Below the pieces are notes generated by a model, which saw only the letters and a list, made by a program, of their open reading frames with translations, was not told the origin of the DNA and searched no databases. Of a stretch of DNA of 64,000 nucleotides, positions 19,884 to 53,810 are shown piece by piece. The translations under genes and the position numbers were made by a program. The stretch lies in the IMG/VR virus record IMGVR_UViG_3300024259_000012. One strand, given 5' to 3'. The stretch's first letter is position 1; the number at the start of each line of letters is the position of its first letter. This DNA comes from a virus.

Positions 19884-20489
19884 TTAGCTACGGTTAAAAA
19901 GGTCAATCAGACGACCGCCAAGCTCTTCCATCATATCATCCCCAGAAGGGGTGTCCTGCTCCAGAACGCCTTCAGTAGATATCTCCTGTTTGGGCGTCTC
20001 AAACCTCTCAAGCCTGTTGTGCTTATGTTTACGCTTGCGGGTTCATTCCATGAAGTAACAATTCAAACAAAGCATTTCCAAATTCTCGGCGGCGTAGTTC
20101 TTTTCGTCGTTGTCCTTGAAGGATAGCATAATAGGCATCTTGCCGTCGTGCTCTCTTGTCTCCTCATATCCACACGAATTACAACACATAGCTAACTTGC
20201 CCTCACGTAGCAATTTGAGGCCGAATTTGACGTGCTCAGGACGACCTGGGATGGCGGCACCGGTTCAGTGCGTCTTCCTTGTACGGGCTATTCCTGCTGA
20301 CGATTTATTCGGCGTTCAAATTTCGTATCTTATAGCGTATTTGCGAAACGTAACGTAGGCGACGCCAAGATACTCAGCCGCCTGTTTCATCGACTCAGTG
20401 TGCATAATGGCCTCTTGGCAGTCCTTAAATGGGATTGGTTTGTGTCGGTATGGGTCGTGACCCTTACTTCATTTAGATGTGTTTTCCAT
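19884..20489 (-). CDS. HTH plus HNH-like (Zn) protein of 201 aa with 4 in-frame TGA (Trp) codons; absent from ORF track
   Basis: AAAGGAG RBS; SMKQAAEYLGVAYVTFRKYA (HTH); CNSCGY...IMLSFKDND.KN...ENLEMLCLNC; TGA at 20469, 20316, 20265, 20043; no TGG in the gene. Confidence 0.8.
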
Positions 20490-20492
20490 AAT

Positions 20493-20600
20493 TAAAACTC
20501 TCCTTTGTTAAAACTCTACATAAAACTGGTGGGACGCCTACATAAAACTCTACCTATAACTCTGTAGTTTTAATTCCGGCGGAAAAGAGTTTTATGTTTG
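20493..20600. repeat. Second cluster of TAAAACT(C)/AGTTTTA repeats
   Basis: 6 copies plus 1 variant directly upstream of the HTH-HNH gene. Confidence 0.75.
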
Positions 20601-20723
20601 GGCAGGTGCCTTTCTTCATATATATAGGTATATATATTGTACCCTTATCTATACAATAAGTATCAGCGTACCAAGAAATGCCACTAAAGGCGTTCTATTG
20701 GCGTTCCATGGCGGCGTAATGAT

Positions 20724-20927
20724 TCACCAAGACTTGGGTTCCATTGGCAAATTGTTGACCTCCCCAATGGATACCGCTCGCTTCATCAATTCAGGACACC
20801 CCTCACACATATTATATAATTCATTCAATACAAGCCACTTATCTCCGGCTACTAAATGCAAGTTGCGGCGTCCATTCAATGTAACACAGTAGTTCTCGCC
20901 TTTTATAATTTTGTATTGTCGGTACAT
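20724..20927 (-). CDS. YKQY-family paralogue 27
   Basis: MYRQYK...CVTLNG. Confidence 0.75.
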   Translation of the reverse strand: MYRQYKIIKGENYCVTLNGRRNLHLVAGDKWLVLNELYNMCEGCPELMKRAVSIGEVNNLPMEPKSW

Positions 20928-21166
20928 TATGTGACTTGAATAAAAGCTCGGGCGTTCAGGCGTTCTTCAAAGTCCTTGACTGTTATCATTTCAAACGTCG
21001 GACCATAAATACAACCATCATTGGGCGCACGAAACCAAGCTACTTCATTGTTCATGTACAGCCGCTTGCCATTCATCCAGATGCATTTTTTATTTTTGCA
21101 CTTGGAGCATAATTGGTATTGTTTGTACCTTATAGTGCTTCGTAACGAAGATTGATTATTAAACAT
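20927..21166 (-). CDS. YKQY-family paralogue 26
   Basis: YKQYQLCSKC..CIWMNG. Confidence 0.75.
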   Translation of the reverse strand: MFNNQSSLRSTIRYKQYQLCSKCKNKKCIWMNGKRLYMNNEVAWFRAPNDGCIYGPTFEMITVKDFEERLNARAFIQVT

Positions 21167-21386
21167 CAAAATACTTTCCATACTCTTCAATAGTATGCTT
21201 TAGTGTCATTGGCTTAAACAGCTTATCAGGACATCGTGAATCATCAATTGACGTGTAAGGAAACTTGATAGTTCTTGCCGCCCAAATGTGTTGCATGACT
21301 ATTATTCCATTCTTGGTTATACAATATGACAGATGGCAGTTCTTGCATATATTGTATTGCTTATATTCTGATATTTTGTATCTCAT
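21159..21386 (-). CDS. YKQY-family paralogue 25
   Basis: YKQYNICKNC..CITKNG. Confidence 0.75.
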   Translation of the reverse strand: MRYKISEYKQYNICKNCHLSYCITKNGIIVMQHIWAARTIKFPYTSIDDSRCPDKLFKPMTLKHTIEEYGKYFDV

Positions 21387-21562
21387 AATACTGCCTTTAT
21401 TCTTACCGTTCTACAATCCGCTTCGGGTCTACAGTTGTCTGGCATATCTTTGTTAGTCGGCACAATATGTGTTAGATTATCAAAATACTCATATACTATG
21501 CCATTCAATGAAGTGCATGTAAACGACTCACACGAGCATACTCTGTATTGTCTATATGCCAT
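21383..21562 (-). CDS. YKQY-family paralogue 24 (59 aa, not in ORF track)
   Basis: MAYRQYRVCSCESFTCTSLNG. Confidence 0.75.
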   Translation of the reverse strand: MAYRQYRVCSCESFTCTSLNGIVYEYFDNLTHIVPTNKDMPDNCRPEADCRTVRIKAVL

Positions 21563-21754
21563 GCTTCACTTCCTTTACATTCACAAATTCAAATTCAGCG
21601 TCCTTGCATTCTGTTTCGGGGTCATCCTCAACTACTGACATTTCATCTCGCTCTTGAGACCACCATGCGTATCTTGTACCATTCAATGAGTAGCAAAAGT
21701 AATTACGACATTTCGTACAACGTCTATACTGTTATATGATGCGGCCAAGTCCAT
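21552..21754 (-). pseudogene. YKQY-family paralogue 23 with a 1-nt deletion in the K codon
   Basis: MDLAASY(K)QYRRCTKCRNYFCYSLNG; sequence reads TATAACAG instead of TATAAACAG. Confidence 0.65.
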
Positions 21755-21941
21755 CTCTCACTTCCGGTACTTCGTTTATTTTTATTAGTATCCTATCCGA
21801 TTTTGTATCACTACAATCTTGAGCCGCTACTGAAACTAACCACGTTTGGTCGGGTCGCATCAATGCTATCCGGACGCCATTCAAAACTATACAGCCTCGT
21901 GACCATTGGCACATACATTTATGATACTGCTTATACTTCAC
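21732..21941 (-). CDS. YKQY-family paralogue 22
   Basis: YKQYHKCMC..CIVLNG. Confidence 0.75.
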   Translation of the reverse strand: MKYKQYHKCMCQWSRGCIVLNGVRIALMRPDQTWLVSVAAQDCSDTKSDRILIKINEVPEVRDGLGRII

Positions 21942-22122
21942 GATAATCTATTTCCTTACGAGTCATCGGGCGTTTCTCACGTTCTGCGAGTGGCGCACTA
22001 CATACGCCCTCATCCTCATAAGTAAACAGTCCCAATTTAGATAACCTTGAATATACGTTGCCATTCAATATCCAACAGATACTGTACTTGCATTCGCAAT
22101 GAGTGTGTTGCTTGTATTGCAT
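21931..22122 (-). CDS. YKQY-family paralogue 21
   Basis: MQYKQHTHCEC..CWILNG. Confidence 0.75.
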   Translation of the reverse strand: MQYKQHTHCECKYSICWILNGNVYSRLSKLGLFTYEDEGVCSAPLAEREKRPMTRKEIDYREV

Positions 22123-22319
22123 TAACATACGCACGGCCATTCGAAGCAAGTCCAACACGGCATTCTATCTTCTGCCTGTTGTATTGATACATGTTGGGGC
22201 ACCCTCACTATACACCTCCGGCAATGCTCTTCATAATTTTCAGTGAAATGCTGTTGTCCATTCTTCATGAGCAGAACAGCCGCCGAGCATTCACACATCT
22301 TGTATTGCTTATAGTTCAT
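22122..22319 (-). CDS. YKQY-family paralogue 20
   Basis: MNYKQYKMCEC...KNG. Confidence 0.75.
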   Translation of the reverse strand: MNYKQYKMCECSAAVLLMKNGQQHFTENYEEHCRRCIVRVPQHVSIQQAEDRMPCWTCFEWPCVC

Positions 22320-22506
22320 ATGGTAATTTACTTATTATCAATTTGGCAAATTTGTGATTGACCGTGCATAGGATATAATCTAAGTCGCATGTTGGCGTAG
22401 CATATAGCCATTGGCCAAGAGCAAACATTGCGTATCTATTATCATTTAAAAATAAACAGCCCTTCTTATCACATTCATTACACAGTTTATATTGTTTGTA
22501 TTGCAT
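22309..22506 (-). CDS. YKQY-family paralogue 19
   Basis: MQYKQYKLCNEC..CLFLND. Confidence 0.75.
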   Translation of the reverse strand: MQYKQYKLCNECDKKGCLFLNDNRYAMFALGQWLYATPTCDLDYILCTVNHKFAKLIISKLPYEL

Positions 22507-22675
22507 TTGCTTCCTTAATCGTTATAGGCTTTCCATTCATATCAGGGCACGCCCGCAATTCATTAAGAATCTTACGCCATCTCCGTTTGTGCCTAAATGC
22601 ATATCGTTCTCCATTAAGCAGAATGCATTCACCCAAGCGACAATCACAATCTTTGAATTGTTTATACTGTCCCAA
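22487..22675 (-). CDS. YKQY-family paralogue 18
   Basis: QYKQFKDCDC..CILLNG..ITIKE. Confidence 0.75.
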   Translation of the reverse strand: MGQYKQFKDCDCRLGECILLNGERYAFRHKRRWRKILNELRACPDMNGKPITIKEANAIQTI

Positions 22676-22850
22676 TTCGAGTTACCTTCCAGTTGGCCTT
22701 CTTACACTTGTTATCATAATTCTTTTCATCCCAATTATTAAAATATGTCATAAATCCAAGTTTGGCGTTCTGTGCTTGTAGGACACCATTCAGTGATAAA
22801 CATAAATACTTCTTGCATTCACAGCGACGCCATTGTTTATACTCATTCAT
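22662..22850 (-). CDS. YKQY-family paralogue 17
   Basis: MNEYKQWRRCEC..CLSLNG. Confidence 0.75.
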   Translation of the reverse strand: MNEYKQWRRCECKKYLCLSLNGVLQAQNAKLGFMTYFNNWDEKNYDNKCKKANWKVTRIGTV

Positions 22851-23058
22851 AATTACTCTTGTGAACATCCGTCACTCTTTGCAATTCCCAATCAGCTTTT
22901 CGACAGTCATCATTGACTTTTACTGTGGATATTGTTGGCATGGGATATTGGTCTTTATCCACCCTTTCATATCGGACGCCATTCAGCGACGAACATATAA
23001 AACGTTTACACGCATCACATTGCCTGAGTTGCTTGTATTCTATATTACATTGTCTCAC
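22843..23058 (-). CDS. YKQY-family paralogue 16
   Basis: EYKQLRQCDAC..CSSLNG. Confidence 0.75.
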   Translation of the reverse strand: MRQCNIEYKQLRQCDACKRFICSSLNGVRYERVDKDQYPMPTISTVKVNDDCRKADWELQRVTDVHKSNYE

Positions 23059-23258
23059 TTTTCGCCCTTCCATTTAAGCAAGTCGTCAGCCGCTGAGATT
23101 GACATAACATCCCCGCTTTTAAAGCAAGTTGGATATGGAAGTGTTACGTTTTCCAATATAACATCCGCTTCCTTTGATTCAAAGTATATTCTCCGACCAT
23201 TTAATGATATGCAGTGACCCCCGATGCAATCACAAGTATTATATTGTTTATACTTCAT
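23055..23258 (-). CDS. YKQY-family paralogue 15
   Basis: MKYKQYNTCDC..CISLNG. Confidence 0.75.
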   Translation of the reverse strand: MKYKQYNTCDCIGGHCISLNGRRIYFESKEADVILENVTLPYPTCFKSGDVMSISAADDLLKWKGEK

Positions 23259-23448
23259 GCTTCAGTTGTCCATTCACATGCTTGATTGATATTTGCTGTT
23301 GATTCATCTTATCACTCCCGCAATTATCTTGAGCATGATACCACGCTTGTATCCGCTTGCGCTGAAAATATTGGCGTTCTCCATTCAGAGTGAGACATTT
23401 ATAGTCCTCGCATTCACTGCATATTTGATATTGCTTATACTGAGTCAT
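23248..23448 (-). CDS. YKQY-family paralogue 14
   Basis: MTQYKQYQICSEC..CLTLNG. Confidence 0.75.
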   Translation of the reverse strand: MTQYKQYQICSECEDYKCLTLNGERQYFQRKRIQAWYHAQDNCGSDKMNQQQISIKHVNGQLKHEV

Positions 23449-23657
23449 ATCCGCTTCGATATGTAAAGTGCCTTGATGACCCAAATGGCAGTTGGCGTGT
23501 GCGTCTTCCCGTTGCACCACTCGTGAGGTTCACTCACTTCTCCTGGGTGCCCCTCTTTTAATTCAGTCCAGTGGTCTTTATATATCATTCGTCGGCGACC
23601 ATTTAAAAAGACGCACCGGCGGTCATCACACATGCAGTATTTATATTGCTTATACAT
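23445..23657 (-). CDS. YKQY-family paralogue 13
   Basis: MYKQYKYCMC..CVFLNG. Confidence 0.75.
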   Translation of the reverse strand: MYKQYKYCMCDDRRCVFLNGRRRMIYKDHWTELKEGHPGEVSEPHEWCNGKTHTPTAIWVIKALYISKRI

Positions 23658-23805
23658 TCTTGCCTTCCTTAATCGTGATGGCTTTGTATATCCCAGACAT
23701 GCAATTTGGCGTTCTATCAGGTGTTGACCGAATAAGCCGCCCGTTTAGCATAAGGCATTCACATCCGCATTTTGTGCATAATCGGTATTGTTTATATTGG
23801 GTCAA
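23650..23805 (-). CDS. YKQY-family paralogue 12 (51 aa, TTG start, not in ORF track)
   Basis: TQYKQYRLCTKCGCECLMLNG..ITIKE. Confidence 0.75.
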   Translation of the reverse strand: MTQYKQYRLCTKCGCECLMLNGRLIRSTPDRTPNCMSGIYKAITIKEGKNV

Positions 23806-23977
23806 AACTGTATATCTCTTTTAATAATTTGTAAGCTTCTCGTATTGTCATTTGTCGGGTCAGTCCGCCGCCTTGGCACTTCCGGAAGGAGTTATCAGTG
23901 CTGACCAATTTTCCATTTTTGCTTATGCATAGGGCACCCGAACATTTACATAATTTGTATTGCTTATAGTCGGTCAT
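23792..23977 (-). CDS. YKQY-family paralogue 11
   Basis: MTDYKQYKLCKC..CISKNG. Confidence 0.75.
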   Translation of the reverse strand: MTDYKQYKLCKCSGALCISKNGKLVSTDNSFRKCQGGGLTRQMTIREAYKLLKEIYSFDPI

Positions 23978-24140
23978 ACGTTTCCTTTATATTCTTTGCC
24001 CGCTTAATCGTTATATGTTTGAAGTCCGCCTTTTGGCATAACGAGCAGGCTATTTTTGATTCTATGACCAATTTTTTGCCATTCCGAATAAGGAATAGGC
24101 TTCTCTCACACGTACATAATCTACATTGTTTATATGCCAC
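23964..24140 (-). CDS. YKQY-family paralogue 10 (58 aa, GTG start, not in ORF track)
   Basis: AYKQCRLCTC...IRNG..ITIKR. Confidence 0.7.
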   Translation of the reverse strand: MAYKQCRLCTCERSLFLIRNGKKLVIESKIACSLCQKADFKHITIKRAKNIKETYDRL

Positions 24141-24321
24141 GGGTCAATTCCTTCACTCGCTTAATTGGCACCGAGGCGTACTTGGTCTCCCCGCTACACT
24201 CATCATCTGTTGGTGCAGTTGTTTGCCACTTATCCCATTTTCTATATACCCGCTGACCATTTAATTGAATGCATTTCCACGTTTTACATTTCGTGCATAA
24301 TGTATATTGTTTATAGTTCAT
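24130..24321 (-). CDS. YKQY-family paralogue 9
   Basis: MNYKQYTLCTKC..CIQLNG. Confidence 0.75.
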   Translation of the reverse strand: MNYKQYTLCTKCKTWKCIQLNGQRVYRKWDKWQTTAPTDDECSGETKYASVPIKRVKELTRGI

Positions 24322-24523
24322 TTTCAGCTTCCCATACTGTGGCGTCCCACAGTTTTGTTACTATTGGCTTATCATTTGGTCGCATTTTACATATTCGCAG
24401 TGCGCCCTCATGACCATCATTCCGCAAATATCTACTTGGTAAATAATTCATCCGTATTTCCCCATTTAGGAATATACACGAATAGCCCAAGCAGGTGCAT
24501 ATTTTATATTGCTTATACTTCAT
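24311..24523 (-). CDS. YKQY-family paralogue 8
   Basis: MKYKQYKICTC..CIFLNG. Confidence 0.75.
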   Translation of the reverse strand: MKYKQYKICTCLGYSCIFLNGEIRMNYLPSRYLRNDGHEGALRICKMRPNDKPIVTKLWDATVWEAENEL

Positions 24524-24738
24524 CCGAATATCTTACCCAGTAAATGGTGGTCTCGCACTTCCTTGATTGCTACGGGTTGTAGATTCTCAGGGTCTACGCA
24601 TTGTTCTGATTCGTCATCATATAGCTTTGGTGAAGTAATATTCGTGACATGGCTTATTCGAATGCCATTCAGATATACGCAATCTACGATGACGACGCCC
24701 AAGGCGCATTTGCATTTGTGGTATTGTCTATAACTCAC
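24520..24738 (-). CDS. YKQY-family paralogue 7
   Basis: SYRQYHKCKC..CVYLNG. Confidence 0.75.
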   Translation of the reverse strand: MSYRQYHKCKCALGVVIVDCVYLNGIRISHVTNITSPKLYDDESEQCVDPENLQPVAIKEVRDHHLLGKIFG

Positions 24739-24934
24739 GGACTTCCCCTATTGATATTGAGACTAAGCTTATGTCCCGTTCGCAATGATAATCTTGTATT
24801 CCATCTTTGGTCGTCCACCATTGATTATCTTCTTTGTAATAGGCTACCTTACCATTTAGGAATACGCACTCTTGCGATGGCCATTGAGGCTTATCGTTGC
24901 ACCCTTTACATATCCGATATTGTCGGTAGGTCAT
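24728..24934 (-). CDS. YKQY-family paralogue 6
   Basis: MTYRQYRICKGC..CVFLNG. Confidence 0.75.
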   Translation of the reverse strand: MTYRQYRICKGCNDKPQWPSQECVFLNGKVAYYKEDNQWWTTKDGIQDYHCERDISLVSISIGEVREL

Positions 24935-25003
24935 GCTGTTATTCTGTCCATTTTTAAATGGACAGACTTTGTGTGCTTATACCTCACTTGGGAAGTTCCG
25001 CCT

Positions 25004-25231
25004 TTAGGCGAGTGTTCCATTTGGTAGGGGTGTAGCGGTGAATTCATACATTTCCTTTATTGTAATGTGTACCCATTTTTTGGGCTTGGTGCAATTCTCT
25101 GCGTAGTGCTTGAATGCTGTTCCGGTTCCCATATATTCGTTGTCGCCATTCTTTATATAACCGGCTGTTCCGTTTTTCGTTAAGCACTCGTTCCCGCATT
25201 CCATGCATAGTTTATATTGCTTGTAATTCAT
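25004..25231 (-). CDS. YKQY-family paralogue 5
   Basis: MNYKQYKLCMEC..CLTKNG..ITIKE. Confidence 0.75.
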   Translation of the reverse strand: MNYKQYKLCMECGNECLTKNGTAGYIKNGDNEYMGTGTAFKHYAENCTKPKKWVHITIKEMYEFTATPLPNGTLA

Positions 25232-25436
25232 GTATCAACCTCCGAATTTCTATTTCGTCTCGGGTTGTTCTGAATTTGAAGTTACTGAAATTGTTTGGAC
25301 ACGCCTCTTCATTATTGGATGGCATCCATGACCGGCATCGCTCAATAACCTGTATTGCCATGTGCCCGTTGAGACTGATGCACTCCACATTTATGCAGTT
25401 TGTGCATATCCTGTATTGTTTATATTTTGCTAACAA
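25212..25436 (-). CDS. YKQY-family paralogue 4 (TTG start)
   Basis: KYKQYRICTNC..CISLNG; GGAG RBS. Confidence 0.75.
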   Translation of the reverse strand: MLAKYKQYRICTNCINVECISLNGHMAIQVIERCRSWMPSNNEEACPNNFSNFKFRTTRDEIEIRRLIHELQAI

Positions 25437-25626
25437 AATTATACTCCACCGTCTCGTGTCCATCATATAACGTTTTGAAGTTCTCTCTTAGCGGGCAGGT
25501 AGATTCTTCTAATTCCCCACGAACTCCCATAATCATATCATTACCATAGCGTGTAGTTATCCGACCGTTCACACTCTTGCATATCCAATCTTTACAATAG
25601 CACTGTCTGCGTTGCTTGTATTGCAT
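25420..25626 (-). CDS. YKQY-family paralogue 3
   Basis: MQYKQRRQCYC..CKSVNG. Confidence 0.75.
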   Translation of the reverse strand: MQYKQRRQCYCKDWICKSVNGRITTRYGNDMIMGVRGELEESTCPLRENFKTLYDGHETVEYNFVSKI

Positions 25627-25847
25627 TAGCTCGTTATTCGTATCCATTTTATCAAATCCTCTGACTCTTGAATGGATAGAGAATTTGGATGGCATGTCCA
25701 TGGTGCGTCGCATTGGGATTCAAGTAGGTGCCAATCAAGGCCGTGGTCACCCATTACCTCTTTTTTCTTTCTGGCTATCCGAATTCCATTAAGAAACATG
25801 CATTCGTACCCGATGCAGATGTGCCCGTTGTATTGTTTATAACTCAT
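25626..25847 (-). CDS. YKQY-family paralogue 2
   Basis: MSYKQYNGHIC..CMFLNG. Confidence 0.75.
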   Translation of the reverse strand: MSYKQYNGHICIGYECMFLNGIRIARKKKEVMGDHGLDWHLLESQCDAPWTCHPNSLSIQESEDLIKWIRITS

Positions 25848-26035
25848 GGGAACCCAAGCTCCTTCACCTCTTTAATAGTTTTGCGGTTGGATTGTTCACA
25901 GCACATGAGTTTGCACCCCAGTGCCGGACTGACCCATGCGACATCATTAACATCCTTGAAATATTTTACCTTACCATTTTCTATAAGGCACATACCCACG
26001 TAGCAACCGCCTAATCTGTATTGTTTATATTTCAT
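25844..26035 (-). CDS. YKQY-family paralogue 1
   Basis: MKYKQYRLGGC..CLIENG..KTIKE; apparent leaderless start just behind TTGCGG...TATATT. Confidence 0.75.
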   Translation of the reverse strand: MKYKQYRLGGCYVGMCLIENGKVKYFKDVNDVAWVSPALGCKLMCCEQSNRKTIKEVKELGFP

Positions 26036-26096
26036 CGTCTATAATATATTATTATTATGCCAGTCCGCAAGGATTATTTTTAATTGAAGAAAAGAC

Positions 26097-26143
26097 TTGA
26101 CTCAAGTGCAGTGTATCACTATATTAAGGCATGAGAAAAGGAG
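26097..26143 (+). promoter_or_regulatory. Early promoter element copy
   Basis: TTGACT-17 nt-TATATT-AAGGCATGAGAAAAGGAG. Confidence 0.7.
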
Positions 26144-26148
26144 AACAC

Positions 26149-26496
26149 ATGAACTTTGAGAGAGAAAACTTCCGTATTGATGGAATGTATGTGAGCTATG
26201 ACAAGTCAGGAAATGCTAAGACTTGGGGAGACTTCACCTTCGTAGCACGCTTCAAGTATCGTGGCCGAGACAAGGGTAGCTTCATCACCTTTCTGATTAA
26301 GAATTTCACAGTAGAAGAATACTTTGGTCGCATTGACTCTGGGGAATCACCTGGAGAGATTTTAAAGTCAAAGGGTTATGTCGCCGCCAGTATCAAACGT
26401 GATTTGAAGCGGGCAGGATATGCTCCAACGCTTGAAGGATACGACGCTTACATTAAAGCTCAAGTTGAAAAATACCAAGCAAGGACAGCATCATGA
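26149..26496 (+). CDS. Conserved phage early protein
   Basis: FVARFKY...FITFLIKNFTVEEYF; TGA stop in ATGA overlap. Confidence 0.7.
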   Translation: MNFERENFRIDGMYVSYDKSGNAKTWGDFTFVARFKYRGRDKGSFITFLIKNFTVEEYFGRIDSGESPGEILKSKGYVAASIKRDLKRAGYAPTLEGYDAYIKAQVEKYQARTAS

Positions 26497-26765: not shown

Positions 26766-28843
26766 ATGTATAACGATTTTAGTGACTGGCAAGACATCGC
26801 AAGGGGAAACAAGTTTACCGTCGTCGAGATGGAAAATGGCGATTTCAAAGCTTGGGATGGAATCAAATTTCAGGGTTGGTTTGGCATGAATGATGAAATG
26901 GAAATCGGCGGGTACTTTGCTGATATGTTCCTCACTCCTGAAGAGAGAGACAGAATATGATGAAACGCTATCAAGTAATCAGAGGCCATAGGGGCGAAGG
27001 TTGGGATATCATTGACACCCGAATCGCACCGCTTGGGTTTGGTGGAATGTTTGGTGCCGTTGTTGAATGGGAGTATTATAAAGCTGAAGCGAATAAGCTC
27101 GCTCGGGTACTCAACAAAAATGATGCTAAAAATGCCAAGTGATTTGCTATATATTGGAGCATTTGTAGTCCTTGGATTTGGAATGTGCTATTTAATATTT
27201 AGGAGAGCGAACCGATGACCAAACTTACTATGAAAAAAGGAAATAGCCCTGGCATCGTGTTATATGATGAAGATGGTAAGCCCGTTCTGACTGTACATGC
27301 TAAGACCAGATGTGACATTTTCAGTGGCAAGGGTGCGGATATAATTTATGAAAAAGACAAGACAATAGAATTTGCACAACAAATAATAGAGGCTTTAAAT
27401 GGTTGAAACTGAATACATAGGTTGGATAAAAGAAACCAAAAGTGGTAAGTACCGTGGGGTCATTAGTTCGTTGCATGAAACTGGCGAACCCGACGGTGAC
27501 CGACTGCTTTACAAACAAGCAGAGTCTGAAATATATGAAGGGCTTGCTCAAGCACAATCCGATTTACAAATGCAATGTGATATGTCTCGGATAACACGAG
27601 TATATCTTGAACCAACAAAAGCGTATGAACATGCAATTGGATTGTATGAATCTGCGTTTCCAAAGGAGACAACATGAACTGGTGGAGCGGAGACCCAAAC
27701 ATTGAAAACCCGAAATTTCCATTTTTTACTATAATCATAGGTTCAATTTTATTAGTGTTTGGACTTACTACATTATTCACCTTGATTCCTGTGAATGATG
27801 ATATTGAAGTGCGTTATGTGGATTCATACATGGCACCAAGTGACCCGCTTGGACTTAATGGTGACTATACAATCATAGGCAAAACTCCCGCTTTAGTGGG
27901 AACCAAGAACGGGTGGAATTATATGGTAGCAAATGATTGCGATACTTCAGTGGTCTGGTTGCTTTGGGACTTGGACACCAACCTTCAAATCACATTTTTT
28001 AAACCAATGTTTTCAATCTCGGAGGATATGAAAAATGACTGATAATTTTGACAATTTGGCAAGTCACCTAATGACCGACGAAGAGGCGAACAACTCATGA
28101 TGACTGAATTCAAAAAATTAGGACTCACATTTGTGATAGGATTTGTATTGATTATGATACATGTGCTTATCAAAGAATTATTTAGTGACGGGTGGGCACT
28201 CACCTTTGTCATTTTAACATTGCTTGGTGCAATGTATTGGAATTCAATAACACGGGAACTCCCGAAGGACGGTGAAGAATGACAATGAAAGAACTTTCAC
28301 ATAGCCGACACTTACAAAAATTGTATTTGCTTGGTGCCGGATTTGTATTCGGTGCCGGAATGTTTGTACATTGGCTTTTCCCAGTTATTGCAGTCGCTGT
28401 AGCATTAATGTGGTTTCCCAATAATGACCCAATTGATAAGGAGCCGGTAGTATGAAAATTAAAACTACGGTTGAATTCACAAGAAACGATGGTGAAAATT
28501 TAACAGTCAATGTTGAATTGACAGACCATGATATTATGGAAGCGGCGATTGAAAAGGCTCTTGTTGACCATGCAGATGTACTTGAAGCTGACCCCGCCGA
28601 TGATGTAGACTGCACAATAACAGGAGCATTCTAATGAGTTTAATGGATGAAATTTTTGACGTGGAAGAGGCAGTCAAAGGAACTGAGGGCGAAGTACCAT
28701 TTGAACGAGTGATGAAATATTTCAATGAGGTTGAAGCTGATAGGGATGCTTTGCTGAAAATCTACAAAGTGTTGCGCAGAACAATTACGATTGCTGAAAC
28801 CCCTGAACTGGAAGACCTAAAGAAAATTATCCCAAGGTGGTAA
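26766..28843 (+). other. Run of ~11 small hypothetical early genes, mostly ending in TGA
   Basis: ORFs ending at 26960, 27142, 27218, 27406, 27677, 28042 and 28282 all stop at TGA, several in ATGA overlaps. Confidence 0.65.
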
Positions 28844-28849
28844 AATGAC

Positions 28850-28897
28850 TTGCACTTGGCCCCTCAATAGGTTAAATTAATAGCGTAATGAGAGAGG
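28850..28897 (+). promoter_or_regulatory. Early promoter element copy
   Basis: TTGCAC-17 nt-TAAATT-AATAGCGTAATGAGAGAGG. Confidence 0.75.
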
Positions 28898-28905
28898 ACT
28901 CCCAA

Positions 28906-29487
28906 ATGAATTTAACGAAACACTTTTCAAATGGCAACATGAAGATTGGAAAAGACACCCTGATTTTTAACATGGGTTCTGCCACCACTTGTGTTGCTAA
29001 GGAATTAGGCTTGTGTGCGGTCGCCAAAGATTGCTACGCAATGAAAGCTGAAATTCAATATCCCCAAGTAAAGCCCTACCGTGACCGTCAAGAAATTTTA
29101 TGGCGTGAAACTTCAGCGTCTGAATTTGCTGAAGCCGTCGTTGGTATTGCCAGCCGCAAACGTTCCCCAATTAAATATCTCAGAATGAATGAGAGTGGTG
29201 ATTTTGCGAGCCAAGCTGATGTTGATAAGCTGACCATGATTGCCGTGATTCTCCGGTCTCATGGAATTAAGACTTACACCTACTCTGCCCGAAGCGACCT
29301 TGATTTTTCCAAGCTCTCTGAAGTGGCGGGAATCAACTTTTCAGGTTTCACCCAAGAGAACAATGGAAACTCCTTCAATGCGGTTGAAGTTTTCACTGAG
29401 GGTGGCATCCAATGTCGGATGGATTGTCGTGACTGTCACATGTGTAAGACTTCCCAAGGCATCGTAATTGAAGTTAAGAAACACTAA
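28906..29487 (+). CDS. GP88-like phage protein
   Basis: GNxKIG, C-x6-C-x5-CYA, RMNESGDF, YTYSAR, C-terminal CxxDCxxCxxC...H. Confidence 0.7.
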   Translation: MNLTKHFSNGNMKIGKDTLIFNMGSATTCVAKELGLCAVAKDCYAMKAEIQYPQVKPYRDRQEILWRETSASEFAEAVVGIASRKRSPIKYLRMNESGDFASQADVDKLTMIAVILRSHGIKTYTYSARSDLDFSKLSEVAGINFSGFTQENNGNSFNAVEVFTEGGIQCRMDCRDCHMCKTSQGIVIEVKKH

Positions 29488-30490: not shown

Positions 30491-31435
30491 TCAATTCATC
30501 ATTCGTTCTTCTAACGTATCTTCGGGCAGTTCATGCCTACCAACAACTTCTAAATTTGGGATAGCACCACTTGGGCATTCGCTTTTAGCATAAAGTTCAT
30601 CTCCAATATAATGACAAAAAATAGGACATTCTTTGCACATCTGAATTTTTTGATATTTAGTCATTTTATGTGATATTAGCCGGAAGAAGTCCAACGCCCT
30701 GCGATGCTGTTACGACAATTCCTTGATGATAACGAAGTGAGGTGTTGTATTGAGTTGGTCTATTCTTTGGAACTGTGAAAGTTGTGGTGTATCCAACGGG
30801 TGCAACCCAACTTGATTTTGCCTTGGGGAATTTAATCGCTAAATTACTGAACATCTCGTGAAGGTGGTCCATTGTTATTGCATCTGCATTATACGTTTGG
30901 ATGGATATTCCCATCCAATGGTGCTCACACTTTGAAAAATCTTTATTGTAGCCTGTAAGCTTGCCATTAATCATATGTCGCTTGCACTTGAGGCATTCTC
31001 TAATCTGTTTGTACGCCATACTGCTCCCTTACTAAATGTATCAGTCCTGTGAATATTGCACCAATCACCAAGATATCAAAAATTGTGAATGTCAGTAAAA
31101 ATGGCATTGAGCTTGCATAGTCCGCAAATTTAGTGAACATACCGTTCTTAAATGCGCCCTTGTAGGCCACCCATAGCATGAGCAAGGGTAGGCTATCACT
31201 TTGTAGTTTGCTAAGGTTTAAGACCATGTGTTGCCTCTTTAAATTCATCATGTGATACACACTTGAAGTCTTTGGAGCACGCTTGCTCATTTACGGTAAG
31301 TGGGATGAGACTGCCTATACGTTCTTCACCTGGATTATTAAGAATAACCTCATAGTAATCCTCATGAATTTTGACGCACGCCGCCTCGGCGGTGCAAGAC
31401 CTGCAGACCCAAACTTTTTTATATCGGCTAAGCAA
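30491..31435 (-). other. Three distant YKQY-like ORFs (30491-30664, 30666-31019, 31211-31435) plus a membrane ORF
   Basis: MTKYQKIQMCKEC, MAYKQIRECLKC..MING, SRYKKVWVCRSC. Confidence 0.5.
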
Positions 31436-51110: not shown

Positions 51111-52186
51111 ATATCTCCTACTAATTGTCCCATAATGAATAATTCCTGTATCTCCGGAAGCTCTGACATGTCCGGCCCTATCGTCAATCTAATCCAATTT
51201 TCTCGTGGGTCATGTGGTATTGAAACCCCACCTCTGTACGCAATATTGGGGTGCGCATCCAACACTGTTGTAGCAAATGTATTATCAAATTCATCGTTGA
51301 AGTGTATCCAATTGGAATTTGTATTCATAACTTCATATCCGGATTCCACCAACAACTGACACATTTTCATTTTCTCTTTCAAGACACCGGCCACATACCC
51401 GTCTATCACCCGTGGGTGGTCTAAGACATATGAACCCCACCTTGCAGAAATGCCGGTGACCTCATGCATCAGTCTCCATTTTGAAATATATTCCATCAAA
51501 TTATCATGTGCAATAATGTATCCAATTCGTGCGCCTGCACTTCCTAATCCTTTGGAAAATGTCCTGCAGATTGCGACATTCTCATAACGTAGTGTAAAAG
51601 CATGTTGTGGTCGCATCAAAAATTCATCGTATGCTTCATCAATCAATAGCGGGATGCCCAATCGGTGTGTTTCCTTTACAAGCGGTAACAATCCGCCGGT
51701 TCCCTTGGCATCTCCGATTGGATTATTTGGGTTGGCAACCATCACAAGTGACGTGTTTGAATTCAGCTTGGAAATCATGTCTGCTACCGACCATTCCATT
51801 TCTTCACTGTATTCTACACCCACAAATTTAGCACCATACAATTCCGAATACACTTTGTACATTGGAAAGCACGGGTCGGTTGAAACAACCTCACTACCGT
51901 GAGTGACTGAAACATCAAACATGGTGCGGATGGCAACATCGGAGCCAGGTGTTAAAAATACGTTTTTAACCTCAACCCCATTCAATTCCGCAATCTTCTG
52001 CTTAAGCTCAAGGACATACGGATATGCTATGATATCTGTCTGCTTGATGCTGTCCAAGAAAGTATTAAAAAACTTATCAGAATATAATTCTGTGCGTTCG
52101 CTTTGGTCAAACCGATACTCTATTGAGCTTTTATCAACGTGGTCATCCTTGCGGTATATGCCTTGTAACCATGGCTTTACTCTCAT
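51092..52186 (-). CDS. PLP-dependent aminotransferase class I/II (HisC-like)
   Basis: PGSD, NPNNP.G, IDEAY, RTFSK.LG.AG.RIGY. Confidence 0.85.
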   Translation of the reverse strand: MRVKPWLQGIYRKDDHVDKSSIEYRFDQSERTELYSDKFFNTFLDSIKQTDIIAYPYVLELKQKIAELNGVEVKNVFLTPGSDVAIRTMFDVSVTHGSEVVSTDPCFPMYKVYSELYGAKFVGVEYSEEMEWSVADMISKLNSNTSLVMVANPNNPIGDAKGTGGLLPLVKETHRLGIPLLIDEAYDEFLMRPQHAFTLRYENVAICRTFSKGLGSAGARIGYIIAHDNLMEYISKWRLMHEVTGISARWGSYVLDHPRVIDGYVAGVLKEKMKMCQLLVESGYEVMNTNSNWIHFNDEFDNTFATTVLDAHPNIAYRGGVSIPHDPRENWIRLTIGPDMSELPEIQELFIMGQLVGDICNVKI

Positions 52187-53097
52187 TAGTTATTTACTCC
52201 CAATTCTGTTAATATTGGAACCAACTCTTTGTATGAGCAATTCTTGCAATGGTCGGTTGGTTCGTTGGTCATGCAACCATGCTTGATTTTCATGAATGCA
52301 TCGGTCTCTCGGATTTCATCAATGCTATCCACAAATATGTTTCCAACTGGGGTCGCCCCTGTATTCATGCAACATATTTTCACATCACCACTAACAGTCA
52401 TGTACATTCCATTGTGTACCCAAAAGCAATCTTCAAAATCCCAAACAGATTTTCCCTTGATTGCAGGTAAGTATGTTTTCAAAAATGCAATTTGCTCGGG
52501 TATATAGCCCAGCGAGTCCTCAGCAGAAATCGTTGAATCTTCATCCCACGACTGAACAATATTTAACCGCAACTCACCTAAATCGTATTTTTCAATCAGA
52601 CGTTCAACGTGTGGAATCTCAAACACATTGTCTGGATTCACGGTGTAGTTTACAACAACCTCACATCCCTGTCGGTCAATGTCTTTGAAATCCTCTAAGA
52701 ATTTAATCAGCGTTGTCCATTTTGCAGGTGACCGGTCACGCTCATAGCTCTCTTCAAATCCATCTATTGAAAAATATAATTCATCAATGTATTCCAGCGA
52801 GCGTTTAAATTTGTCGCCCAATTTGTATTGACAATTTGTAGCAACTATGACCTTACACTTTGGGAAGGTTTGTTTGAATCTCTTACAAACCTCATCAAAT
52901 TGAGGGTGCAATAATGGTTCACCCATTCCCATTAATTTGGCTTCTGCAATTGGGTGGTGCTTCAGCTTTTCCAGCACGATGTCCCATTTAACCAATGACA
53001 TGTGGGAAAGCTTGCCAATAACCTCATGCCGATTACAGAATGAGCAATTGAGATTGCAATAATTTGTGGTTTCTAAATATGCGTATGTTATGCTCAT
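52186..53097 (-). CDS. Radical SAM/SPASM protein
   Basis: CNLNCSFC, GEPLLHP, C-terminal CC...GNI...CxxC. Confidence 0.9.
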   Translation of the reverse strand: MSITYAYLETTNYCNLNCSFCNRHEVIGKLSHMSLVKWDIVLEKLKHHPIAEAKLMGMGEPLLHPQFDEVCKRFKQTFPKCKVIVATNCQYKLGDKFKRSLEYIDELYFSIDGFEESYERDRSPAKWTTLIKFLEDFKDIDRQGCEVVVNYTVNPDNVFEIPHVERLIEKYDLGELRLNIVQSWDEDSTISAEDSLGYIPEQIAFLKTYLPAIKGKSVWDFEDCFWVHNGMYMTVSGDVKICCMNTGATPVGNIFVDSIDEIRETDAFMKIKHGCMTNEPTDHCKNCSYKELVPILTELGVNN

Positions 53098-53810
53098 GTT
53101 GTGGTGGCTCCCCATTGGTTACCAAATTCGTAATTAAACATTTCTATATCTTTAGCGAATCGGGTTTCAACAATGTGTCGTCCCTCATTGCTATACATTT
53201 CATGGTATGAATCTATTTTCTGAAAATACCCATCATGCGTTCTAATGTTGCTTCTCATTTGTGGCAACTCCGGCAATTCAAACATAGGCAGTCCCAGCCC
53301 CTCAAATAACTCAGCACAATTGGCTTCCAAATTTTCAAAGTGAACAATATAGTCAACCATTAGCTTGCCATCATCGCCTGTAATCCAATCCGCACATGGA
53401 CTTAAAATTCTGCGATTTGTGTGAGTCAATCCATCAATCGTTCGCTCTTCATAATCCGGTGAAATGTCGTGTGTAAATGCGTCTCTCAACCAATCATCAA
53501 ATGATGCCTTCACATACGATAAGCTTTTTGGATTGCACACGTTCTTTCTGTACTGAGACAGCATTCTGTCCCATGGATTACGGACGATTGCAAATTTAAT
53601 ATAATCTTCCCAAGTTTCTCCGAGTGCCAACTTATACTCGTGAGCATCCCAATGTTGAGAATGTGGGAATTTGATATCAGGATGACCGAATCCTTCGGTT
53701 GCCGCATACTTGAAACCATATGGCTCCAATGCTTGATTTACCGAATTTCCACCGGTCTTATTAATGTGTACAAACACAAATTTGATTGGTGCGTTTTCAT
53801 TAGCTATCAT
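53094..53810 (-). CDS. Sulfotransferase (Sulfotransfer_2-like)
   Basis: FVHINKTGG.SV (5'-PSB), VRNPWDRMLS.Y (3'-PB), D..MF.Y.F. Confidence 0.85.
   Translation of the reverse strand: MIANENAPIKFVFVHINKTGGNSVNQALEPYGFKYAATEGFGHPDIKFPHSQHWDAHEYKLALGETWEDYIKFAIVRNPWDRMLSQYRKNVCNPKSLSYVKASFDDWLRDAFTHDISPDYEERTIDGLTHTNRRILSPCADWITGDDGKLMVDYIVHFENLEANCAELFEGLGLPMFELPELPQMRSNIRTHDGYFQKIDSYHEMYSNEGRHIVETRFAKDIEMFNYEFGNQWGATTT

Follow-up and report, generated by a model that had tools for sequence, protein, structure and literature searches.

A T4-like phage carries 27 diverged copies of a small four-cysteine protein in one array, a candidate repertoire of early-made binders

Large phages repeatedly hold tens of copies of tiny cysteine-based proteins. 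In Bacillus phage G, a zinc ribbon is expanded to ~35 copies, a size that was called unprecedented (Iyer et al. 2021, PMC7824862), and the hyperplastic regions of T4-type phages (PeSL regions) hold small, non-essential genes of fast turnover behind strong sigma70-like early promoters and differ between close relatives (Arbiol et al. 2010, PMC2839356). Here, we describe a 64,000-nucleotide stretch of viral DNA (IMG/VR record IMGVR_UViG_3300024259_000012, hereafter the window), in which 27 consecutive head-to-tail genes of one cysteine-based family, each encoding 51-79 residues, fill positions 26035-20724 of the minus strand (5.3 kb; Table 1). As in the phage G expansion, a large phage holds a small, Cys-based protein that binds metal (putatively in our case) in tens of diverged copies, and like the PeSL regions the array lies downstream of a sigma70-like early promoter, predicted here from a -35/-10 pair with an A-rich block. 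The differences are nevertheless substantial. Whereas the phage G zinc ribbon is built from two CxxC knuckles, one per beta hairpin, the ligands in the array follow the pattern Cx(1-2)Cx4C...C, and no Pfam zinc-ribbon match was found among the 27 members, the only zinc-finger-type match at E<=1 being zf-RING_4 with a single member (E=0.13). The array is thus set apart from the phage G protein by its ligand pattern and by the absent Pfam match, and not by a direct alignment. Phage G is a jumbo Bacillus phage, whereas the phage of the window is T4-like and carries its copies in one overlapping operon. In PeSL regions, the genes are unrelated ORFans that come with a promoter and stem-loop apiece, in contrast to one paralogue family with one promoter, overlapping genes and one internal hairpin. 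No described equivalent was found in the literature, and while parallels for multi-copy small Cys proteins exist, this family and its predicted fold seem to be previously undescribed.

A preliminary description of the window, made from its letters and open reading frames, had not recognised the family, and our searches matched it to no characterised family either. Comparison of the members with Pfam, PHROGs and NCBIfam gave scattered chance matches, all with E above 0.007, and a sequence profile search of the PDB gave 0 matches at E<=10. Among 50,697 cultured-phage records, megablast found no similar DNA and tblastn with two members found no family member. When a family profile was run against 1.84 billion representative proteins, 27 matches were obtained, of which 10 belong to the phage of the window, 16 to a 9.8-kb JGI contig (L001) and one to a second contig of the same sample (L002). 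A word-indexed homologue search with the family alignment returned only proteins already in hand, and an IMG/VR related-locus search with gene 7 found nothing. In a degenerate motif scan of DNA from IMG/VR, JGI metagenomes and GTDB, the matches listed were single-match loci at about the chance rate, and among them none had a second copy or a convincing score with the family hidden Markov model (HMM). One such locus, L007:1646-2095 (+) on a 94-kb IMG/VR contig, encodes 150 residues with the string MNKYKQYEYC...CLGLNG and was rejected, as its likeness rests on 26 pattern-selected residues; since the locus had been picked out by that very pattern, an ascertainment artefact may explain the likeness. 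The family therefore appears to be known only from the phage of the window and one relative.

All 27 reading frames reported in the preliminary description were present on the minus strand, and all but one of them, gene 23, are intact. Alignment of the copies gave the shared motif M-x-Y-[KR]-Q-Y-x2-C-x(1-2)-C-x4-C-x2-L-N-G, which is followed by a length-variable segment without common residues, a fourth Cys and usually [IV]-x-[IV]-[KR]-[ED] near the C-terminus (often (T)IKE). Every window copy has Q5, N20 and the fourth Cys, and each of Y3, C11, C16 and G21 is kept in at least 90% of them. Not every copy follows the family pattern: gene 23 is frameshifted, gene 27 is without the first two Cys, and the ligand positions are shifted in genes 1, 2, 10 and 20. 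A DNA pattern of the motif matched 10 times within the window, every time in the array (0.00 expected from shuffles), and the family HMM recovered the 27 array members together with one weak outlier at 31019-30666. The GC content of the array equals that of the remaining window. The codons of the YKQY string vary synonymously (TAT/TAC and AAA/AAG/AGA/CGA), and this variation, together with the selection on orthologue pairs described below, bears out the conservation at the protein level that had been claimed for the motif.

To see how the copies are related, we compared the array with that of the relative. L001 carries 34 members at the same locus, between orthologues of the genes that flank the array in the window. 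The window paralogues share a mean identity of 26% (maximum 37%), whereas the tree contained 15 strongly supported orthologue pairs between the window and the relative, with 45-81% identity and a mostly collinear order; for the flanking genes, identities between the two phages span 47-90%. Twelve members in the window and 19 in L001 are without a clear partner, so that arrays of 27 and 34 copies at one locus share only 15 members. The sole well-supported sister pair within a genome, R10/R11 of the relative (96/96), has long branches and hence is not recent; two further pairs within the relative have weaker support, and the window has none. Eight population contigs from different samples were 99.8-100% identical across the array with 0 indels. 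Considering the divergence of paralogues, the conservation of orthologues and the indel-free contigs, the array is an old family whose members are individually conserved and gained or lost slowly. An accordion-like expansion by duplication, which had been proposed earlier, does not agree with these results: paralogues are at most 37% identical, well-supported sister pairs join the two phages except for R10/R11, and there is no copy-number change in the population.

Selection was then evaluated by region from the proportions of nonsynonymous (pN) and synonymous (pS) differences. In the 15 orthologue pairs pooled, pN was 0.21 and pS 0.69 (pN/pS ~0.3), and the ratio was below 1 in every region, with 0.21 in the N-terminal motif, 0.34 in the middle and 0.43 at the C-terminus, which points to purifying selection over the whole protein length. 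The middle segment had been called hypervariable, and this is true between paralogues but not between orthologues, which keep 62% identity there in line with the pN/pS of 0.34. The genes are real, selected, old and restricted to this lineage. In gene 23, one A was lost from the YK codons (TATAAAC to TATAAC), so that the start at 21754 and the body lie in different frames. The intact allele was found in population contigs L099 (3001-3204) and L100 (104-307), while the deleted allele is carried by the window and most population contigs, and one of the two intact contigs comes from a sample in which the deleted allele occurs as well. Gene 23 is a pseudogene that is polymorphic in the population.

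The number of Cys residues is conserved: exactly four were counted in 42 of 61 members. Three ligands are clustered at Y+7, Y+9/10 and Y+14/15 and one is distant, at Y+30 to Y+54, and where a canonical Cys is missing, it is offset by one elsewhere in the protein (e.g., positions 9, 14, 44, 50 or 13, 15, 42, 45). Four conserved thiol ligands with such compensation are what defines a generic Cys4 structural metal site. No signal peptide or membrane segment was visible in the member sequences, which are most naturally read as carrying a Cys4 metal site in the cytoplasm, and the site probably binds a metal, most likely zinc. The zinc-stabilised scaffold suggested at the outset would fit the four-Cys count and its compensating positions. 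The only two members with eight Cys are orthologues of each other with identical Cys positions, and gene 20 of the window probably carries a second metal site at its C-terminus.

When gene 9 and the atypical gene 27 were modelled with AlphaFold, both exhibited five strands and a C-terminal helix, with predicted local distance difference test (pLDDT) values of 82 and 79 and predicted template modeling (pTM) scores of 0.66 and 0.65, respectively. Two very different members are thus predicted to share the same order of elements around a variable middle, as expected of a common fold. Foldseek searches of the PDB and BFVD gave nothing at E<=0.001 (best E=1.2 and E=0.24), VIA-align against 48,161 chains gave best Z scores of 4.1 and 3.5 where the noise level of the tool is 7-8, and a search of the ESM Atlas returned unnamed clusters only, at 0.85. 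The top weak structural neighbors of both models were Sm/LSm-like small beta-barrels (Z 3.0-3.5, root-mean-square deviation 3-4 Å over 49-59 residues, below noise), which have five bent antiparallel strands and a similar size. In Sm proteins, the helix is N-terminal rather than C-terminal and there is no metal site. Given that there is also no sequence similarity between Sm/LSm proteins and the array family, we did not count this as a match.

The region upstream of gene 1 contains, on the minus strand, an A-rich block, a -35 element TTGCGG and a -10 element TATATT/TATTAT ending 5-7 nt upstream of the gene 1 ATG, without a ribosome-binding site, and a second promoter, TTGACT-17-TATATT, lies on the plus strand at 26097-26125. 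The control region is 85% identical to that of L001, with both -35/-10 pairs retained and varying spacers, compared with 70-78% for the array and flanking coding DNA and 82% at the far flank. This conservation, with the missing Shine-Dalgarno sequence, is consistent with the earlier proposal of a single sigma70-like promoter and a near-leaderless first gene. No copy of the phage's own promoter type, TTGACAT-N15-TTAACTT, was found inside the array. On the plus strand, the first ATG of the divergent gene 26131-26496 is just 5 nt past the -10 box; this gene probably starts at the second ATG, 26149, which has AAGGAG 6 nt upstream and where the alignment of the relative's orthologue begins.

Within the array, 25 of 26 gene junctions overlap or abut, the lone gap being 69 nt between genes 5 and 6. 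At 12 of the 26 junctions, the Tyr-Lys/YR codons of the next gene contain the stop of the upstream gene, TAA in most cases (TA-TAA-A), and others have the form ATGA or TAATG. A Shine-Dalgarno-like AAGGA, supplied by the Lys-Glu codons of the upstream gene, precedes only ~11 of 27 starts; the C-terminal KE is thus partly a nucleotide-level signal, and translation probably proceeds by termination-reinitiation coupling. The hairpin in the gap, with a perfect stem just ahead of gene 6, is not a standard terminator because it has no T-tract; it might mark a site of processing or the edge of a cassette.

The stop codons of the array were compared with those of the gene that follows it. Eight array genes stop at TGA and none contains an in-frame TGA, and TGA and TAA are swapped at identical protein ends in two orthologue pairs between the window and L001, W13 (TGA)/L16 (TAA) and W08 (TAA)/L14 (TGA). 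TGA is a stop codon in the array. The downstream gene 19884-20489 (minus strand) forms an unbroken 201-codon frame only when four TGA codons are read through as Trp, and its L001 orthologue aligns across two of the four; its 201-residue product had no Pfam match at E<=0.01. Since the array uses TGA only as a stop, it falls into the TGA-stop class of this phage, which fits the idea that such genes are the early class.

Based on these results, we suggest that the array is a repertoire of early-made binders on one scaffold, each with its own host target in takeover or counter-defence, and consider this reading about evenly poised between right and wrong. In this view, a marine T4-like phage would carry the array as one early operon, transcribed by the host sigma70 RNA polymerase from one conserved promoter, with translation handed from gene to gene through overlapping stop/start junctions. 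Some 26 distinct proteins, small and cytoplasmic, would be produced on a common scaffold. This would consist of five beta strands, forming a sheet or small barrel, and a C-terminal helix, held in place by a tetrahedral Cys4 site with zinc as the most likely metal. The scaffold would keep Y-K-Q-Y, the first three Cys near the N-terminus, L-N-G, the fourth Cys and the helix constant, and copies would differ completely, in sequence and in length, in the beta3-beta4 hairpin and in the loop ahead of the fourth Cys. Such a set would evolve by slow gene birth and death and not by rapid amplification. What we infer is the binding of zinc, the early timing, the coupling of translation and, most of all, the function as binders. 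In a more specific form, the invariant Tyr-Lys-Gln-Tyr/Asn-Gly patch would dock on a common host machine or phage enzyme, and each hairpin would recruit or block a different host protein; we regard this constant-face/variable-face library as unlikely, although it would mean that the phage encodes a combinatorial repertoire, deployed as the first act of infection, on a metal-binding fold without known relative.

Several points weigh against a repertoire of binders. There was no sign of positive selection between orthologues, as an arms-race repertoire might show, with the synonymous divergence being saturated, and only two phage lineages carry the family, so that comparative power is low. The two AlphaFold models share one alignment and are not independent. 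Tight translational coupling of 27 genes would suit the subunits of one assembly too, and many members are basic, which is compatible with nucleic-acid binding. The locus is an unusually clean case, with one family in one operon and 27 and 34 copies at one locus in two relatives, and the confident fold model without relative together with individually conserved copies makes it a tractable set for repertoire function. Should each copy disable a different host factor, the family would offer new small protein inhibitors in compact form; otherwise, it joins the other lineage-restricted families without an assigned function.

The charge of the members bears on whether they are instead nucleic-acid-binding factors, either sequence-specific regulators of transcription or RNA or architectural DNA-binding proteins, and we consider this rather unlikely. 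The mean net charge of ~+3, with some members reaching +9, would suit such a role, and so would the Sm/LSm RNA-binding barrels as weak best structural neighbors (Z 3.0-3.5), were these scores not far under the tool noise. Roles as transcription factors or DNA-binding proteins have also been suggested for the phage G expansion (Iyer et al. 2021, PMC7824862). However, several members are neutral or acidic, and with a range from -3 to +9 the family has no uniform nucleic-acid-binding character. Furthermore, the Pfam search gave no helix-turn-helix or classical zinc-ribbon signature, and 27 different regulators in an immediate-early operon would be hard to justify.

The overlapping junctions, which imply roughly equimolar coupled synthesis, would also be expected if the paralogues assembled into one hetero-oligomer, a ring or fibre whose subunits are small barrels that meet through the constant YKQY/NG face. 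The conserved non-ligand residues Y3, Q5 and the Asn of NG suggest a shared interface, and there is a weak resemblance to Sm-like ring formers. However, a fixed assembly would not tolerate that only 15 members are shared between arrays of 27 and 34, and one member, gene 23, is dispensable in the population, so this alternative seems quite improbable.

Considering that 21 conserved N-terminal residues are followed by a variable part, as in multi-precursor loci of ribosomally synthesized and post-translationally modified peptides (RiPPs), and that the window encodes a radical SAM protein with a SPASM domain (52186-53115), the members might be precursors with a conserved leader and a variable core processed by this enzyme. 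The enzyme gene, however, is 26 kb off within a sugar-nucleotide/aminotransferase/sulfotransferase/glycosyltransferase cluster, its product reaches no peptide-maturase cut-off, and no maturase, protease or exporter adjoins the array. The supposed leader is where the Cys residues lie, conservation extends to the fourth Cys and the C-terminal helix, the folds are predicted confidently over the whole length, and purifying selection between orthologues acts on the middle and the C-terminus as well; RiPP precursors are therefore very unlikely. Decaying or selfish repeated DNA without protein function, for which one frameshifted member and the many members skipped by gene callers might speak, is the least probable reading and effectively refuted by pN/pS well under 1 in all regions, 26 of 27 open frames, a motif conserved with synonymous change and an array that is identical across independent samples.

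Table 1. Positions of the array genes and associated elements in the window. Orthologues are genes of L001, with percent identity where available.
Feature	Coordinates	Strand	Description
Divergent control region	26036-26130	.	array promoter on minus, second promoter on plus strand; from sequence reading and scan
Gene 1	25844-26035	-	63 aa; ATG, TGA stop; no Shine-Dalgarno, near-leaderless; Cys ligands shifted; orthologue gene 1, 45%
Gene 2	25626-25847	-	73 aa; orthologue gene 3, 68%
Gene 3	25420-25626	-	68 aa; public calls begin at 25647, giving 75 aa (P0029); orthologue gene 4, 70%
Gene 4	25212-25436	-	74 aa; TTG start; alternative ATG 25466; orthologue gene 5, 74%
Gene 5	25004-25231	-	75 aa; without clear orthologue
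Hairpin	24943-24966	-	10-bp stem; in 69-nt gap between genes 5 and 6; fold z-score -4.5
Gene 6	24728-24934	-	68 aa
Gene 7	24520-24738	-	72 aa; GTG, TGA stop; orthologue gene 9, 79%
Gene 8	24311-24523	-	70 aa; TAA stop; orthologue gene 14, 74%, TGA at same residue
Gene 9	24130-24321	-	63 aa; consensus-like; used for structure model
Gene 10	23964-24140	-	58 aa; GTG; later CxxC replaces third canonical Cys
Gene 11	23792-23977	-	61 aa
Gene 12	23650-23805	-	51 aa; TTG; shortest member
Gene 13	23445-23657	-	70 aa; TGA stop; orthologue gene 16, 70%, TAA at same residue
Gene 14	23248-23448	-	66 aa; orthologue gene 18, 61%
Gene 15	23055-23258	-	67 aa
Gene 16	22843-23073	-	76 aa; start uncertain; orthologue gene 20, 53%
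Gene 17	22662-22850	-	62 aa
Gene 18	22487-22675	-	62 aa; TTG
Gene 19	22309-22506	-	65 aa; LND in place of LNG
Gene 20	22122-22319	-	65 aa; 8 Cys; orthologue gene 22, Cys positions identical
Gene 21	21931-22122	-	63 aa; orthologue gene 24, 51%
Gene 22	21732-21941	-	69 aa; GTG; orthologue gene 26, 59%
Gene 23	21552-21754	-	frameshifted here, 1-nt deletion in YK codons; intact 67-aa allele is P0002
Gene 24	21383-21562	-	59 aa; TGA stop
Gene 25	21159-21386	-	75 aa; 7-residue N-terminal extension
Gene 26	20927-21166	-	79 aa; start uncertain; orthologue gene 8, 46%, placed elsewhere in the relative's array
Gene 27	20724-20927	-	67 aa; TGA stop; late CxxC; second structure model; orthologue gene 31, 54%
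P0001	30666-31019	-	117 aa; probable distant member outside array; HMM E=2.6e-4; hhalign probability 88.6%, E=2.6e-6

Many array genes are skipped by the public gene calls on identical contigs, and automatic annotation of the array in this dual-code phage is unreliable. In one public call (P0017, window ~20560-20990), TGA was read as Trp and gene 27 was fused to upstream and downstream sequence into a product of 145 residues.

The weak HMM outlier P0001 is family-like in its N-terminal 60 residues, which are followed by a 57-residue extension, and a homologue search with it found nothing outside its own genome; L002 also carries a relative of P0001. Three small Cys proteins encoded in another operon at 30491-31435 (minus strand) begin with YKQ/YKK/YQK-like residues, and of these only 30666-31019 is statistically linked to the family, while 31211-31435 and 30491-30694 were rejected as members in spite of their motif-like starts (hhalign probabilities 3% and 1.4%). 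The single family match on L002 is a stray member (1380-1616, +) in the opposite operon, between orthologues of window 28634-28843 and of the GP88 gene (28888-29487), and its N-terminus is closest to that of window gene 24.

The array is flanked only by small hypothetical genes and an HNH-like gene. The neighbor genes in the window are phage-type, encoding an HNH endonuclease, T4 gp30.3, GP88 and a protein resembling beta-glucosyl-HMC-alpha-glucosyltransferase that is 55-58% identical to proteins of Vibrio and Aeromonas phages. Farther away, at 36000-63500 on the minus strand, lies a long sugar-modification cluster with a gene combination unusual for a phage, comprising nucleotide-sugar epimerases, a UDP-glucose dehydrogenase, several glycosyltransferases, an aminotransferase, a hexapeptide acyltransferase, a sulfotransferase and the radical SAM/SPASM (twitch-like) enzyme.

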